From the IMG/VR virus record IMGVR_UViG_2896601577_000010: a DNA stretch of 14,746 nt. One strand, written 5' to 3'. Positions 9,143 through 14,746 of the stretch are shown here, one piece after another. Made by a program: the position numbers and the translations under genes. A model generated the notes under the pieces. The model did not search any database and was not told where the DNA came from. It worked only from the letters and a program-made list of their open reading frames with translations. Each line of letters opens with the position of its first letter. The stretch's first letter is position 1. Source of the stretch: a virus (lineage: Duplodnaviria > Heunggongvirae > Uroviricota > Caudoviricetes).

Positions 9143-9267
9143 TGTTAACTGCTGCCTGGTTAACATTTTCTGAAAAAGCCAGTTAACATTTTTTTTCGCA
9201 CAACAAACTGAATAATAAAGATAAAAACCGCAAAAATACCCGGACAGCCAGTTAACATGTTAACTGG
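9143..9267. repeat. Cluster of GTTAAC-centred motifs in the HNH-TerS intergenic region; candidate cos / TerS recognition sites
   Basis: TGTTAACTG at 9143-9151, GGTTAACATTTT at 9158-9169, CCAGTTAACATTTT at 9179-9192, and the 20-bp perfect palindrome CCAGTTAACATGTTAACTGG at 9248-9267, interspersed with AT-rich sequence. Confidence 0.5.
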
Positions 9268-9355
9268 CCTGAAACGGGAATTTTTTCTCTGCGTGAGAGG
9301 GGCGCGGTGTCCAAAGCGATCGTTTTTTACGCCGGATGATACCCCCGGGGTCGGG

Positions 9356-9721
9356 TTACAGTCCGATGATGTCGTCCTCTCTGCCACTACCTCCGGACAC
9401 CTCCGGCAGCGTCGGATCCGGCATATCACTCGCCGCTTCACGAGCAGACTTTTGTCGATGGCATTCGGTACAGAGCGTCCAGAGATTCGTCTCCTCATTA
9501 CCACCACCGAACTGAAGTGCAATTCGGTGATCGAGTTCACTGTCACAGAGGTCAACCACACGACCACAGAGACGGCACTGCCCGGCGTCCCTGAGCCAGA
9601 TATGACGCTTGAGGGAAACACGTGCACTGCCACTGACACGACGCTGTTCACCCTTCAGAATATTCACCCGTCGGGTATTCAGTGTTTTGATTCTGCTCTG
9701 GAGTGTACGAAGCTCAGCCAT
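9356..9721 (-). CDS. Phage-associated HNH endonuclease (packaging-linked)
   Basis: 121-aa ORF with the motif CRLCGRVVDLCDSELDHRIALQFGGGNEETNLWTLCTECHRQKS. ATG at 9721 is preceded by GGGGA. The HNH-TerS-TerL context is typical of cos-type HK97-like packaging modules. Confidence 0.8.
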   Translation of the reverse strand: MAELRTLQSRIKTLNTRRVNILKGEQRRVSGSARVSLKRHIWLRDAGQCRLCGRVVDLCDSELDHRIALQFGGGNEETNLWTLCTECHRQKSAREAASDMPDPTLPEVSGGSGREDDIIGL

Positions 9722-9762
9722 GTAAAATCCCCGTCATATGGCAATCAGTAAAGGAAATAAAT

Positions 9763-9963
9763 ATGTCATCGAAAAACCGTACCCGCAGAACCACAACCCG
9801 CAATATCCGTTTCCCCAATCACATGATTGAACAGATCAACATCGCCCTTGAGCATAAAGGGTCCGGTAACTTTTCAGCGTGGGTTATTGAAGCCTGCAGG
9901 AGAAGGCTGGCAACAGATGCAACGCATCTGCGCCCGGCCAGCATGACAAATAACGAGAAATGA
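9763..9963 (+). CDS. Small ribbon-helix-helix-like DNA-binding protein (66 aa), possibly YlcI/YnfO-like
   Basis: ATG at 9763 lies 7 nt after AAGGA. MSSKNRTRRTTTRNIRFPNHMIEQINIALEHKGSGNFSAWVIEACRRRL fits a basic tail, beta-strand and two helices. It is divergent from the HNH gene. The longer GTG-initiated ORF from 9703 is disfavoured. The family name is a memory-based guess. Confidence 0.45.
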   Translation: MSSKNRTRRTTTRNIRFPNHMIEQINIALEHKGSGNFSAWVIEACRRRLATDATHLRPASMTNNEK

Positions 9964-10094
9964 ACGTTCGGTTACAGGAGCAGGTACCCACTGTCCTCCA
10001 ACAATATTTCATCTTCATATCCGACGGAACAAGACTTACCCTGCCGGGATGTACAGAATAACAACAGAGTGATAATTAATTTCTGATGAAATAA

Positions 10095-10421
10095 TCAGGG
10101 TGCGGAAGGACTAAAGATAAACGTTTTCTTCACGCCTTTACACGGCCTGTCCTTCTCAAATCGCCATTTTGCCATCGCCTTTACAACCTGCTCATCAAAC
10201 AGATGGTGCGGCTCTGAACGAATAAACTCAATTCGGGTGACAGTACCATCAGCACCAATATCAAACCTCACATCAACCCGTCCCTTTATATAATTTGCCG
10301 CTGCATAGGCCGGATATTGTGGTAATGCCTTAACCAACTGTCGGGGCATATCTGTTTTATGTTGCGTACAGCCCATAACCAGAGAAGACAACAAAATAAT
10401 TAACGGAAGATTTCTTTTCAT
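10095..10421 (-). CDS. Lipoprotein with a TonB C-terminal-like domain (moron, low GC)
   Basis: MKRNLPLIILLSSLVMGC is a signal peptide with lipobox LVMG-C. The mature part (...PQYPAYAAANYIKGRVDVRFDIGADGTVTRIEFIRSEPHHLFDEQVVKAMAKWRFE...) resembles the TonB_C fold signature. ATG at 10421 is preceded by GGGGA. GC content is visibly lower than the flanking phage genes. Confidence 0.6.
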   Translation of the reverse strand: MKRNLPLIILLSSLVMGCTQHKTDMPRQLVKALPQYPAYAAANYIKGRVDVRFDIGADGTVTRIEFIRSEPHHLFDEQVVKAMAKWRFEKDRPCKGVKKTFIFSPSAP

Positions 10422-10453
10422 TTTCATTCCCCGCACAGATAAAAATAAGTCTT

Positions 10454-10484
10454 ATTCTAACAATGCCGCCCTGTCGGTCATCAA
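10454..10484 (-). promoter_or_regulatory. Candidate sigma70 promoter for the lipoprotein gene
   Basis: On the minus strand: TTGATG (-35, plus 10479-10484), 16-17 nt spacer, TGTTAGAAT (extended -10, TAGAAT at plus 10454-10459), about 30 nt upstream of the start codon. Confidence 0.3.
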
Positions 10485-10759
10485 TCCTCTGCTTAATGGC
10501 AACGACAATTATCCGACTTAAATCACAAATCAGACACATGACATAACAGGGCTTGCGAGGTAACACATCGTCCTGTTTCTTCCACCATCGCACCGGACTG
10601 GCGACTATGAGGGGACAACGCCGCGCTCCGTTAACGCGGTAAACCCCGGTGTGTATCGTTTTAGATTATCCCCGCACACTCGCGCAGAGGAGTCTCCCTG
10701 TCGGGCTGCGGTCTCTGTTAATGAGGGAATACAGCGACGATACGGCGCATCAGCAAAAC

Positions 10760-10789
10760 TTAGTTCAGGCACTGAGTGCGGATATAGTC
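10760..10789 (-). pseudogene. Displaced 3' end of Rz (last 8 codons plus stop), separated from the gene body by the IS insertion
   Basis: Joining 12054-12056 to 10786-10760 through one copy of the duplicated GTC restores ...LEGAQDYIRTQCLN-stop, which parallels the lambda Rz C-terminus ...LEGTQKYINEQCR. Confidence 0.6.
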
Positions 10790-10832
10790 TGAGGTGTACT
10801 GGCAATAGCGGACACTACCATTTGTTCTTTTT

Positions 10833-11651
10833 TTAAGCAGTCATCTGATGATATTTTTCCCTGAAGGCTGCCGGGGAGATATTCCCCAGACGAGAGTGAC
10901 GACGCTGACGATTGTAGAAAATCTCAATGTATTCCCGTATTACTGAGATGGCTTCATCCCGGTTATTAAAACGATAGTGGCTCAGGCTCTCATTTTTCAG
11001 CGTTCCCCAGAAGCTTTCCATCGGAGCGTTGTCGTAACACTGACCTTTACGCGACATTGATGTTTTCAGACCAGACTGCTCCTGTATGACCCGGTAATCG
11101 TATGCGCAGTACTGTGAACCTCGATCAGAGTGGTGGATTAGCCCGGCAGGTGGGCGCTGGCTCCTGAGCGCCATAAACAGGGCTTTACCTGTCAGCTCTT
11201 TTGTCATGCGCTCTCCCATGGCGTAGCCGACAATTTCGCACGTATAAACATCTTTGATGCCAGCGAGGTACAACCATCCCTCCTGTGTGGCAACATACGT
11301 CAGGTCCGCCACCCAGACCTGATTTGGTGCTGTAGGAGCGAACGTCTGGTTCAGCAGATTTGGCGCAACTGGCAGATTGTGGTTCGGGTTCGTAGTCGCT
11401 CTGAACTTGCGTTTCTGCTTACAGCGTAGCCTTAGCTCCTTACGAAGACGTGCCAGTCGGTCACGACCAACGATGATGCCATTCTCTGCCAGCTCCGTCT
11501 GGAGCCGCCGGGTTCCATATGTTTCGCGAGTGCGGATATGTGCCACCTTAATCTCCAGTTTTAGCCGCTCATCACTTTGTTTTCTGTCTGAGGGTTCATG
11601 CTGTACCCAGTTGTAATAACCGCTCCTGGATACACCAAATACCTGACACAT
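10833..11651 (-). CDS. IS3-family transposase OrfB (DDE catalytic domain)
   Basis: 272-aa ORF with ...VWVADLTYV...HHSDRGSQYCA...CYDNAPMESFWGTLKNE... (DDE/rve signature). The frame continues upstream to the slippery site, as expected for OrfAB. Confidence 0.85.
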   Translation of the reverse strand: MCQVFGVSRSGYYNWVQHEPSDRKQSDERLKLEIKVAHIRTRETYGTRRLQTELAENGIIVGRDRLARLRKELRLRCKQKRKFRATTNPNHNLPVAPNLLNQTFAPTAPNQVWVADLTYVATQEGWLYLAGIKDVYTCEIVGYAMGERMTKELTGKALFMALRSQRPPAGLIHHSDRGSQYCAYDYRVIQEQSGLKTSMSRKGQCYDNAPMESFWGTLKNESLSHYRFNNRDEAISVIREYIEIFYNRQRRHSRLGNISPAAFREKYHQMTA

Positions 11652-11686
11652 CGCTTCAATGGGAAATTGTTGTCGCCATTGTTCGA

Positions 11687-11989
11687 TTAACGCGTATTTT
11701 TCAGCGACTCCTGTGCAAAATACGCTGTTGCTTTTTTTAATATATCTCGCTCAAGGCGAGCTTCATTTAACGCCTTACGCAGTTGCAGAATTTCAGATTC
11801 CAGTTCAGCCACCGTGCGGGAACCAGGAGTACCGAGCCCTTTTCTGGCGGCGGTAACCCATTGTCCTAAAGTGCCTTCAGGAAGGGATAATCGGGAAGCG
11901 CCTTCACTGATCGAAAGTTGATTTTCAAGAACCGTTCTGACAGCTTCGGCTTTGAACTCTTTAGAGTAACGTTGGTTTTTTCTGCTCAT
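11687..11989 (-). CDS. IS3-family transposase OrfA (HTH DNA-binding subunit)
   Basis: 100-aa ORF MSRKNQRYSKEFKAEAVRTVLENQLSISEGASRLSLPEGTLGQWV... with a C-terminal leucine zipper-like region. ATG at 11989 is preceded by AAGGAG. Confidence 0.85.
   Translation of the reverse strand: MSRKNQRYSKEFKAEAVRTVLENQLSISEGASRLSLPEGTLGQWVTAARKGLGTPGSRTVAELESEILQLRKALNEARLERDILKKATAYFAQESLKNTR
11741..11750 (-). promoter_or_regulatory. Programmed -1 ribosomal frameshift site (A7G) for OrfAB transposase fusion
   Basis: Minus strand ATATTAAAAAAAGCA encodes ...ILKKA near the end of orfA; the orfB frame is open upstream to this point. Confidence 0.5.
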
Positions 11990-12050
11990 TATTAGCTCCT
12001 TCTGATGCCATTCTATTTCAGGAAGGAGTGTCCGTTAAACTCAGGCTACC

Positions 12051-12494
12051 TCAGTCCTGTGCCCCTTCCAGCTGCTTCTGCATTGTCATCAACCGTTCTC
12101 TGAGGATGAAATAATCCCGTTCAGCGGTGTCTGCCAGTCGGGGGCCGGTTGCATTATCCACGCCGGAGGTGCCGGTGGCTTCACGCACGGTACCGGAGCA
12201 GGTGGCGTTGATCCGCAGGCGCTTACGACCAGCGGCAACATCAGCACGCAGAGTTTCATTTTCAGCTCTCGCATCGGCTAATTCCCTCGAGTATCTGGCA
12301 TCAAGTGCAGCGACATCACGCTGGCGTATCTGCATATCAGTAATTGTCGCGTTCGCCAGCTCCAGCTCACTGGCTTTTTTATCGCGCTGCTCTTTGTAGA
12401 TGATGGCGTGAACACGGTAATGATTCAGCCCCAGACTAAGCGCACCACAGGCCACCAGCAGGGCAATGATGACCACGCACAAAACACGGTTCAT
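12051..12494 (-). pseudogene. Rz: Rz (i-spanin), C-terminus truncated by the IS insertion; stop codon supplied by the IS terminus
   Basis: MNRVLCVVIIALLVACGALSLGLNHYR...ERDYFILRERLMTMQKQLEGAQD has an N-terminal TM segment and coiled coil, very similar to lambdoid Rz. The reading frame ends in the TGA formed by the first three bases of the IS inverted repeat (12051-12053). Confidence 0.8.
12089..12274 (-). CDS. Rz1: Rz1 (o-spanin lipoprotein), embedded in the +1 frame of Rz
   Basis: MRELKMKLCVLMLPLVVSACGSTPPAPVPCVKPPAPPAWIMQPAPDWQTPLNGIISSSENG has lipobox LVVSAC and a proline-rich mature part, closely resembling lambda Rz1. Entirely nested within Rz. Confidence 0.75.
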   Translation of the reverse strand: MRELKMKLCVLMLPLVVSACGSTPPAPVPCVKPPAPPAWIMQPAPDWQTPLNGIISSSENG

Positions 12495-12495
12495 A

Positions 12496-12609
12496 TCACC
12501 ACCAACGGATTGCCCAGACCAGAACAGCAATTGCCACAATACGAATGGCAAAAGCTGCCGCTCTTGTTAAATCCAGACTGGCTGGCGTCTCCACTTCAAT
12601 GCCTTTCAT
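12496..12609 (-). CDS. Candidate small membrane protein (37 aa) translationally coupled to Rz
   Basis: ATG at 12609 lies 9 nt after GAGG. MKGIEVETPASLDLTRAAAFAIRIVAIAVLVWAIRWW has one predicted TM helix. Its TGA at 12496-12498 sits 1 nt before the Rz ATG (TGAtATG). It is not in the supplied ORF track (below the length cutoff). Confidence 0.3.
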   Translation of the reverse strand: MKGIEVETPASLDLTRAAAFAIRIVAIAVLVWAIRWW

Positions 12610-12704
12610 AATGGACAACCTCAGAAAGAATCTTTTATACTTCCTCACAGGGAAAGCACCTCCCTCACCATAATTTCTCCCTTGCCTTACTCAAGGTCAG
12701 AAAA

Positions 12705-12748
12705 CACAAAACCCCGCTTGCTGCCAACAAACGGGGTTTTTACTTTTA
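12705..12748. terminator. Bidirectional intrinsic-terminator-like hairpin between the endolysin and the Rz region
   Basis: AAACCCCG (12708-12716), a 15-nt loop, then CGGGGTTT (12732-12739), followed by TTTTTACTTTTATT on the plus strand and preceded by the complement of TTTGTGTTTTCT (T-rich on the minus strand). Confidence 0.45.
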
Positions 12749-12829
12749 TTCACTTAGGTTTTGCCAGTTCACAGGACTTCGTGTTATCCGCCCGCGTGAG
12801 CAAGCGTCATTTTTCAGCAAAATATTCTG

Positions 12830-13363
12830 CTACCTGTCGATACCCCAGCACGCCAGCGCGCTCTCCTGGTCACGCCGCGATACCTGCCCGTAACAGTTAT
12901 TTGAGCGGTTCCGACAGTCCCTGCCGCCGTCATATATCCAGCGACGAATTTCAGCACATGCACCTTTCCGGTCTCCGGCGTTCAGTTTCCGGTAAAACGT
13001 TGAGCTGAAACACTTACCGGGGCCAATGTTGTACGGACAGAATGACGCGATCCCCGATTTCTGGGGTTCGGTCAGCGGCACTTTGATGTTTTTCTCCACC
13101 CATGCCAGCGCCTTATCACGTTCAATGGCGTTAACCTGGTCGCATTTCTCCTTCGACAACTTCATGCCCGGGACGACAGGTTTACCATCCACCAGAATGG
13201 CACCGCGGCAGATGGTCCAGATACCCGCGCCATCACGGTATGCCGTGGTGTGGTTACCTTCCTTTTCATCCAGAAACTGGTCGAGAATGTCAGGCGCAGG
13301 CGCACCAGCGGCAATCAGCGCCAGAACGGCAGCCGACAGGCCGTATCTGATTTTTGCGTTCAT
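12830..13363 (-). CDS. Phage lysozyme R, SAR (signal-anchor-release) endolysin type, glycoside hydrolase family 24-like
   Basis: 177-aa ORF. The N-terminus MNAKIRYGLSAAVLALIAAGAPAPDILDQF is a weakly hydrophobic SAR-like segment, followed by EGNHTTAYRDGAGIWTICRG (E/D/T catalytic motif of T4/P21-type lysozymes). Resembles the Qin-prophage RrrQ lysozyme by recall. Confidence 0.85.
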   Translation of the reverse strand: MNAKIRYGLSAAVLALIAAGAPAPDILDQFLDEKEGNHTTAYRDGAGIWTICRGAILVDGKPVVPGMKLSKEKCDQVNAIERDKALAWVEKNIKVPLTEPQKSGIASFCPYNIGPGKCFSSTFYRKLNAGDRKGACAEIRRWIYDGGRDCRNRSNNCYGQVSRRDQESALACWGIDR

Positions 13364-13468
13364 GGATATTTATCAGGATTTATCGGTTTCTGAGCCCTGG
13401 ATATGTTTATCAGTTCCAGCCTGTTGCCTCAGGCTGCTAACAGGTCAATACAATCATGAGGATTATTT

Positions 13469-13741
13469 ATGGACAATAACACCATTTCTCTACAGGAGTT
13501 GCTCGACAGCATTTCCAGGCTTCGGGAAGACGTGAATACCCTTACCGTCGCCTTCTCATATCTGGCATTCTCAATTCCAAGGGAACAGATGCAATCAACG
13601 CTGGCATCAATCCAGTTTGAATCATGCAATCCCAAATGGTCTCAGGAACAACAAGACTCTTTCAGGCGGCTTGCTGTATTACTGGATGAAAAATATGCTG
13701 GTAAAATTACCATTTCGGCGGACTCTTCAGAGAACCCGTAA
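13469..13741 (+). CDS. Hypothetical protein (90 aa), low GC, opposite strand to the phage late genes
   Basis: ATG at 13469 lies 8 nt after GAGG. MDNNTISLQELLDSISRLREDVNTLTVAFSYLAFSIPREQ... has no recognisable family. Its 3' end overlaps the 3' end of the 13707-14051 gene by 35 bp (convergent). Confidence 0.35.
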   Translation: MDNNTISLQELLDSISRLREDVNTLTVAFSYLAFSIPREQMQSTLASIQFESCNPKWSQEQQDSFRRLAVLLDEKYAGKITISADSSENP

Positions 13742-14051
13742 TTATTCCCGGTAGTTTTCCTCTGTAGGTTATCAACACATCCTGCGCCTCTAAAATTACG
13801 GGGCGCTTTTCCGGCGACTGCTCATCCCCTTCACATAACCCGGCAGCAACATCCAGGAAGACCTGTCTGATGCTCCTTCTGGCTGCTGCCTCATAAAACT
13901 CCAGCGCGGCACCTTCAACACGGTCCAGCGAGATGTCCAGGTCAAAAATTTCACCGTCAAAGCGTTTTTTGTCCCGTAACGCTAAAGTTACCGTAACTTT
14001 ATTCTCAAAATTGCGGATCCCTTTCACAATCAGTTCATAGTTTTGAGTCAT
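13707..14051 (-). CDS. Phage protein, possibly YdfR/DUF1327-like (114 aa)
   Basis: ATG at 14051 is preceded by GGAGAG. MTQNYELIVKGIRNFENKVTVTLALRDKKRFDGEIFDLDISLDRVEGAALEFYEAAARRSIRQVF... The upstream part of the 159-aa track ORF is encoded by the IS911 terminus and is excluded. The family assignment is from memory and unverified. Confidence 0.5.
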   Translation of the reverse strand: MTQNYELIVKGIRNFENKVTVTLALRDKKRFDGEIFDLDISLDRVEGAALEFYEAAARRSIRQVFLDVAAGLCEGDEQSPEKRPVILEAQDVLITYRGKLPGIITGSLKSPPKW

Positions 14052-14113
14052 TGAATTACTCTCCCCGTGCAGCCTTACGACGGTCCTCTCTGATTTTGAA
14101 ATACAGGTTAGTC

Positions 14114-14415
14114 TGAAGTGGCACACTGAATTTGGCCACCTGAACAGAGGTGATATGCTCACCTCAGAACAACACAGGTGCTCCAATGAAAAAAAGAAAT
14201 TTTAGCGCAGAGTTTAAACGCGAATCCGCTCAACTGGTTGTTGACCAGAAATACACGGTGGCAGATGCCGCCAAAGCTATGGATGTTGGCCTTTCCACAA
14301 TGACAAGATGGGTCAAACAACTGCGTGATGAGCGTCAGGGCAAAACACCAAAAGCCTCTCCGATAACACCAGAACAAATCGAAATACGTAAGCTGAGGAA
14401 AAAGCTACAACGCAT
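14114..14415 (+). mobile_element. IS911-like (IS3 family) left-end fragment, interrupted by IS1
   Basis: Starts TGAAGTGGCACACTGAATTTGGCCACC (IS3-family TG terminus), with the orfA ATG 72 bp in. The element ends abruptly at the IS1 terminus at 14416. Confidence 0.7.
14186..14415 (+). pseudogene. IS911 OrfA (InsN-like) truncated after about 77 codons by the IS1 insertion
   Basis: [76 protein letters not shown] matches IS911 OrfA. The frame then reads 7 IS1-encoded codons (MVMLPTY) to a stop at 14435-14437. Confidence 0.8.
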
Positions 14416-14746
14416 GGTGATGCTGCCAACTTACTGATTTAGTGTATGATGGTGTTTTTGAGGTGCTCCAGTGGCTTCTGTTTCTATCAGCTGTCCCTCC
14501 TGTTCAGCTACTGACGGGGTGGTGCGTAACGGCAAAAGCACTGCCGGACATCAGCGCTATCTCTGCTCTCACTGCCGTAAAACATGGCAACTGCAGTTCA
14601 CTTACACCGCTTCTCAACCCGGTACGCACCAGAAAATTATTGATATGGCCATGAATGGCGTTGGATGCCGGGCAACTGCACGCATTATGGGCGTTAGCCT
14701 CAACACGATTTTACGTCACTTAAAAAACTCAGGCCGCAGTCGGTAA
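14416..14746 (+). mobile_element. IS1 (partial copy, truncated by the window edge), canonical isoform
   Basis: Begins with the IS1 inverted repeat GGTGATGCTGCCAACTTACTGATTTAGTGTATGATGGTG. insA starts 55 bp in. The A6C frameshift motif TTAAAAAAC is at 14720-14728. Confidence 0.9.
14471..14746 (+). CDS. insA: IS1 transposase InsA
   Basis: 91-aa [94 protein letters not shown]. Confidence 0.9.

Follow-up and report, generated by a model that had tools for sequence, protein, structure and literature searches.

The stretch of DNA analysed here (hereafter the window) comprises 14,746 nucleotides of the IMG/VR virus record IMGVR_UViG_2896601577_000010, assigned to the Caudoviricetes, and its minus strand encodes the distal portion of a lysis cassette of the lambdoid kind. 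Here, the 3′ end of Rz, the gene of the i-spanin, is interrupted by a complete copy of the insertion sequence (IS) IS600, a member of the IS3 family. The reading frame of Rz now closes on a stop codon supplied by the terminus of the element, and Rz1, the gene of the o-spanin lipoprotein that is nested within Rz, lies next to the insertion. A first-pass annotation, made from the letters alone, had already proposed an insertion of this kind, and its claims are taken up below together with the genomes that bear on them.

The IS600 copy and its target site

The element spans positions 10790-12053 on the minus strand, exactly the 1264 bp first given for it, and its transposase is read in the same direction as Rz. 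It shares 99.8% identity over 1264 of 1264 bases with Escherichia coli features annotated in RefSeq as 'IS3-like element IS600 family transposase', and shows eight mismatches and no gaps against five IS600 insertions from E. coli strains that make Shiga toxin (STEC), annotated copies being 99.4-99.8% identical overall. The naming of the element takes these annotated RefSeq copies as its reference. This near-identity, together with the domains and the ends, bears out the initial assignment to the IS3 family and to IS600. As is characteristic of IS3-family ends (5′-TG...CA-3′), the element begins with TGAGG and closes with CCTCA, and its length falls within the range of 1.2-1.5 kb. The terminal inverted repeats are imperfect (TGAGGTAGCCTGAGTTTAACGGACACTCC and TGAGGTGTACTGGCAATAGCGGACACTACC), with 28-nt arms that are 71% complementary.

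Both transposase frames proved as intact as had been claimed. The frame of orfB is shifted by −1 relative to orfA, the A7G slippery run of the programmed −1 frameshift is in place, and a stem-loop lies just downstream of it on the transcript. The orfB translation has the expected DDE context (WVADLTY, HHSDRGSQY and YDNAPMESF), and the OrfAB fusion amounts to 385 aa, equal in length to the RefSeq coding sequence annotated 'programmed frameshift'. With frames, slippery site, inverted repeats and duplication all intact, the sequence of this copy is compatible with an element that may still be mobile.

IS600 was first described in Shigella sonnei, and is abundant in Shigella, in enteroinvasive E. 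coli and in STEC of serogroups O121, O103 and O26. Matches to it occur in 3,487 of the 5,426 complete E. coli genomes, in up to 43 places in a single genome. The element is active in STEC, where it can be precisely excised if the gene iee is present (PMC9397093).

The element is flanked by two copies of GTC, one distal to Rz and one inside it. Since the empty site holds a single GTC, this direct repeat is a 3-bp target duplication and not a chance match, as the first-pass annotation had read it. Once the IS and one GTC are removed, the joined flanks agree, without gaps, at 174 of 174 bases with a locus of E. coli EcPF7 that has no interruption. The 'lysis protein' annotated there, of 155 aa, shares its C-terminus with the reconstructed Rz, and no empty locus with a mismatching sequence was seen. 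A joined flank of 1200 bp aligns as a single piece in 345 E. coli genomes. The occupied junction reads GAGTGCGGATATAGTC followed by TGAGGTGTAC, and the empty site reads GGATATAGTC followed by CTGTGCC. The outer limits given in the first annotation, 10760 and 12056, correspond to the original stop codon of Rz and to the last base of the second GTC, respectively. The junction between Rz and IS600 is also present in a second assembly: a contig of GCA_026028555.1 is 100% identical to window positions 12036-14110 and ends 18 nt into the IS600 repeat. Because this independent contig reads across the same base, the junction is real.

The comparison took in five further IS600 insertions, each at a site of its own, and every one of them has a 3-bp duplication (TTC, ATA, GAC, GCC and GTA). 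A preference for a particular target sequence was considered and rejected: some matches of the junction probe reached into the flank for roughly 20 nt (91% identity), which was taken as chance, and no convincing motif was common to this site and the flanks of the two other insertions compared in this respect.

IS600 adjoins genes annotated as 'lysis protein' in 37 E. coli genomes. A hot spot within Rz was nevertheless rejected, as the two STEC prophages inspected have the element at different sites and with different duplications. The copy with the TTC duplication is located downstream of Rz, where its end provides an annotated open reading frame (ORF) of 51 aa with a TGA stop, and the copy with the ATA duplication splits a KilAC antirepressor gene situated between lysozyme and Rz.

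Consequences for Rz and its lysis cassette

On the minus strand, Rz now ends ...CAG GAC TGA, where the TGA corresponds to IS bases 12051-12053. Translation of this strand confirms that the IS terminus donates the stop codon and that Rz is thereby eight residues shorter (147 against 155 aa). Such a donated stop is routine, since the ends of IS600 read TGAGG, and is to be expected in about one third of insertion frames; one of the five other insertions likewise supplies a TGA stop to an annotated ORF. The truncated protein matches the profile PF03245 with 152 bits (cut-off 25.4) over profile positions 2-119 of 126, and the match stops at position 119 because of the truncation. Both its sequence family and its embedded Rz1 identify the gene as Rz, and what it lacks is the complete C-terminal end.

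Deletion of the IS and one GTC restores an Rz of 155 aa that ends LEGAQDYIRTQCLN, can be aligned over its whole length with lambda Rz (LEGTQKYINEQCR) and includes a cysteine equivalent to lambda C152. The C-terminus had been called reconstructible, and the reconstructed protein of 155 aa is indeed encoded, without a single difference, in public Shigella genomes. The lost residues, YIRTQCLN, are the counterparts of lambda Rz Y147-R153, C152 among them. Rz1, for its part, is untouched, as first stated: it is a complete ORF whose end lies 35 nt short of IS600, and its translation has a lipobox (...LVVSAC) and the cysteine equivalent to lambda C29.

The functional meaning of this loss can be approached from lambda, where the truncations Q151X and C152X of Rz are lysis-defective and their products fail to accumulate (PMC5295617). 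In the same protein R153 alone is dispensable, residues up to C152 are required, and E150 contacts Rz1 (PMC5295617). Lambda Rz and Rz1 each form homodimers via intermolecular disulfides, and for function one of the two cysteines, C152 of Rz or C29 of Rz1, must be present, the C152 disulfide being dispensable when C29 of Rz1 is present (PMC5295617). Since the counterparts of lambda Y147-R153 are missing here, and truncations at lambda 151 and 152 are lysis-defective, the 147-aa Rz is predicted not to work as a spanin subunit. The first-pass annotation had held that the lost cysteine takes part in covalent spanin linkage. The cysteine-containing tail is indeed lost, but the lambda C152 disulfide joins Rz to Rz and not Rz to Rz1.

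Prophage sequence is confined to window positions 458-14113, and IS sequence lies at both ends. The endolysin of the cassette is intact, but upstream of it there is no intact holin. An IS3-family fragment that begins at 14114 and looks IS911-like from its OrfA sequence (the matching records do not name it so) takes the place of the remaining holin and of all that lay upstream; IS1 interrupts this fragment in turn at 14417. The window contains no late regulatory region. As the cassette has neither holin nor late promoter, truncation of Rz should give no lytic phenotype. Beyond Rz lie a gene for a lipoprotein with a TonB_C domain, an HNH gene, the small and large terminase genes and the head genes. 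At the other end of the window the boundary is set by a further IS1; in CP049281.1, a tail product of 118 residues is called, consistent with the same IS1 boundary. The TonB_C ORF looks like a moron; many prophages of E. coli and Shigella retain it in the same place, under the annotation 'TonB family protein'.

Table 1. Features of the window, with positions counted from its first base
Feature	Position	Strand	Description and basis
Truncated Rz (i-spanin)	12051..12494	-	147 aa, ends ...LEGAQD-stop; Phage_lysis PF03245, E=1e-44
Orphaned 3′ end of Rz	10760..10786	-	8 codons (YIRTQCLN) and original TAA; identical to end of the 155-aa Rz of E. coli EcPF7 and of the public Shigella protein
Rz1 (o-spanin lipoprotein)	12089..12274	-	Intact, nested in Rz in another frame; Rz1 PF06085, E=1.7e-21
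GTC duplication, copy distal to Rz	10787..10789	.	Empty site with single GTC
GTC duplication, copy inside Rz	12054..12056	.	Codon GAC = Asp147 on minus strand
IS600 left inverted repeat	12026..12053	-	5′-TGAGGTAGCCTGAGTTTAACGGACACTC; first three bases TGA = present Rz stop codon
IS600 right inverted repeat	10790..10817	-	
IS600 orfA	11687..11989	-	100 aa, intact, HTH_Tnp_1; ORF list; Pfam PF01527, E=1.3e-20
A7G slippery run	11731..11738	-	Programmed −1 frameshift; IS position 316
Stem-loop	11692-11725	-	12-nt arms; inverted-repeat scan
IS600 orfB	10833..11651	-	272 aa from first ATG, intact, integrase-core DDE; rve PF00665, E=2.7e-25; HTH_21 PF13276
Endolysin (phage lysozyme)	12830..13363	-	177 aa, intact; Pfam PF00959; tblastn residues 1-177 in one frame
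37-aa ORF	between lysozyme and Rz	-	
DUF1327/YdfR gene	13707-14051	-	
Class II holin remnant	14059..14112	-	Last 18 codons (residues 54-71 of 71); tblastn with related holin
5′ fragment of IS3-family element	14114..14416	+	303 bp; E. coli records that match it have 'IS3 family transposase, incomplete'
IS1 (IS1A family transposase)	14417..14746	+	Continues past window end; inverted repeat GGTGATGCTGCCAACTTACTGATTTAGTG from 14417
IS1	1..457	-	Continues past window start; truncates major tail subunit gene at residue 112/238
TonB_C lipoprotein-like ORF	10095-10436	-	PF03544; just downstream of Rz; promoter-like site at 10481-10454
Homopolymer deletions	9347, 9303, 7966, 7529, 6444, 5165, 4380, 4255, 3654, 3398, 2437, 2136, 2065, 1136, 832		

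Distribution, order of events and rival explanations

The 155-aa Rz has an exact counterpart among public sequences, 'MULTISPECIES: lysis protein [Shigella]' (UniProt B2TWN9_SHIB3), found on 203 contigs. The 147-aa Rz is WP_039064700.1, 'lysis protein, partial [Shigella boydii]', and occurs on three contigs, GCA_026028555.1 among them. With 203 contigs for the intact allele against three for its truncated form, the insertion is polymorphic and represents a rare derived allele. The suggestion that it is recent gains support from this polymorphism, and from the empty site in two complete Shigella-type chromosomes, CP001063.1 and CP049281.1. A junction probe of 110 bp was not covered to 80% or more by any of the 5,426 complete genomes of E. 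coli, and the exact junction gave no match in the GTDB representative genomes and none in the JGI metagenomes.

The two chromosomes with the empty site, of which CP001063.1 is S. boydii CDC 3083-94 according to the UniProt name of its Rz, encode the exact 155-aa Rz without interruption. They match the window over positions 12053-14746 at 99.9% and without gaps, including the boundary between the IS3-family fragment and IS1 that cuts the holin, and they match it again from position 10789 downward, so that the two alignments abut at a single GTC. Because these empty-site remnants share the same holin-cutting IS boundary, the loss of the holin is older than the insertion of IS600; with the holin reduced to 18 codons, the cassette was already dead when IS600 came. 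The ancestral state is seen in a closely related prophage in CP045784.1, which has a full 71-aa holin and a Q region.

Two further observations concern these chromosomes. In CP049281.1, a 197-bp fragment of IS600, 100% identical to window positions 10790-10986, lies about 0.4 kb past the IS1 that closes the window, which indicates that IS600 sequence was already near the remnant. At the equivalent of window position 9670, the HNH endonuclease gene of CP001063.1 is longer by 16 bases (GGGTGAATATTCTGAA, duplicated in tandem); neither the window nor CP049281.1 shows this duplication, and the CP001063.1 locus lacks a called HNH gene.

We regard it as nearly certain that IS600 transposed into the 3′ end of Rz in a prophage remnant of the S. 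boydii type and truncated Rz, as a rare, late and neutral step of decay. Other IS had stripped the remnant of its holin, of the late promoter region and of tail genes before IS600 came. An active-looking IS600 then inserted near the end of the gene of the i-spanin, duplicating the 3-bp target GTC, and the insertion fell in the frame that makes the terminal TGA of TGAGG a codon, so that Rz ends after Asp147. By homology with lambda, the truncated Rz would fail to accumulate and to form a complex with Rz1. No structural evidence at the locus contradicts an insertion.

A very improbable alternative is that the insertion was selected, the knock-out of the spanin or a polar effect serving to domesticate a lethal cassette or to tune vesicle release, in which case the truncation would be adaptive. 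The intact lysozyme and Rz1 would suit such a reading, as would the recurrence of IS600 insertions in and around the lysis cassettes of STEC prophages. Lysis modules of defective prophages are also said to be linked to vesicle production in K-12, to judge from the title of one study, and this too would count in its favour. However, the ancestral remnant had already lost both holin and late region, which left no lethal cassette to tame, and the occupied allele is rare (three contigs against 203). Moreover, the other IS600 copies sit at different sites and in different genes, as expected of an IS that reaches 43 places per genome, and no evidence for selection was found at this site.

A regulatory effect, in which read-out transcription from IS600 would alter the expression of the downstream TonB_C gene, has just as little to recommend it. 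The two are indeed co-oriented and only about 350 bp apart, but a consensus scan revealed no outward-facing promoter at the distal end of IS600, and the TonB_C gene has a promoter-like site of its own. Promoter-like sites as such are no commoner in the region than in shuffled sequence (4 against 3.0 +/- 1.8).

Still more far-fetched is the notion that lysozyme, truncated Rz and Rz1 are transcribed as a trio from an adjacent IS and play a role in the host, such as envelope remodelling or vesicle release, with IS600 acting as a switch that could be reversed by the IS-excision enhancer (IEE). Were this so, an Rz unable to pair with Rz1 would change the function of the trio in the host.

Least of all can the placement of IS600 be a repeat misplaced in an error-prone long-read assembly: 15 single-base homopolymer deletions do betray an unpolished source assembly, but the perfect 3-bp duplication around a full-length IS, the independent contig that enters the 18 nt of IS600 repeat at the same base and the presence of the 147-aa product on three NCBI contigs effectively refute such an artefact.

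The deletions themselves came to light in the comparison with CP049281.1 over 10 kb (window positions 775-10789), in which 15 of 15 indels are one-base deletions in the window, within G or C runs of four to seven. They produce apparent frameshifts in TerL, the capsid gene, the portal region, the connector and gp17, and they are probably sequencing or assembly errors. The split TerL, capsid, connector and gp17 genes were considered as pseudogenes and rejected as such, since all 15 indels are homopolymer deletions and the references encode an intact TerL of 553 aa. IS600 and the flank on the side of Rz have no gaps against the references, and the junction is that confirmed by the second assembly.

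Three points weigh against a neutral insertion with the consequences outlined above. The source genome has systematic homopolymer errors; the case for neutrality depends on the window and two reference genomes, all of which lack the holin and the late region upstream; and the identity of this Rz to lambda Rz is only about 70%, so that what is said of its function is drawn from lambda.

The element is IS600 itself, the interrupted gene is an ordinary Rz with an embedded Rz1, and the truncated product is already public as a partial lysis protein. The biological importance of the case is small, as a known element shows its known behaviour in an ordinary event. Its value lies rather in being a clean textbook insertion of the IS3 family, with its 3-bp duplication and its terminal TGA as in-frame stop, and in marking one step, open to dating, in the erosion of a Shigella prophage remnant by IS. 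Within S. boydii, its junction could also be used as a lineage marker. As for the truncated allele, it amounts to a natural test of the C-terminal length requirement of Rz, a test that lambda genetics has already answered.

Comparison with known systems

The closest functional counterpart is the Rz/Rz1 spanin of lambda, with which this pair shares the families PF03245 and PF06085, the embedded arrangement of Rz1 and the C-terminal motif LEG.Q.YI..QC. The occupied allele resembles the lambda mutants Q151X and C152X (Cahill et al. 2017, PMC5295617) in that the C-terminal cysteine region is removed. Unlike in those mutants, eight residues are lost here instead of two or three, the loss is caused by the end of an IS and not by a point mutation, and the cassette has no holin.

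With regard to the element, this IS600 does not differ from known copies, and only its insertion site is particular. A comparable case is the IS600 insertion in lacZ of STEC O121:H19 (PMC9397093), where a gene is likewise inactivated by a simple insertion that is polymorphic within a lineage and potentially reversible. In lacZ, the insertion shows itself in delayed use of lactose and its excision by IEE is documented, whereas for Rz no phenotype is expected.

Shigella genomes are known for pseudogenisation driven by IS (PMC8072062). The locus fits well among the IS-riddled cryptic prophages of Shigella, and differs from them in nothing of substance: it is a remnant bounded and interrupted by IS1, by a fragment of an IS3-family element and by IS600.

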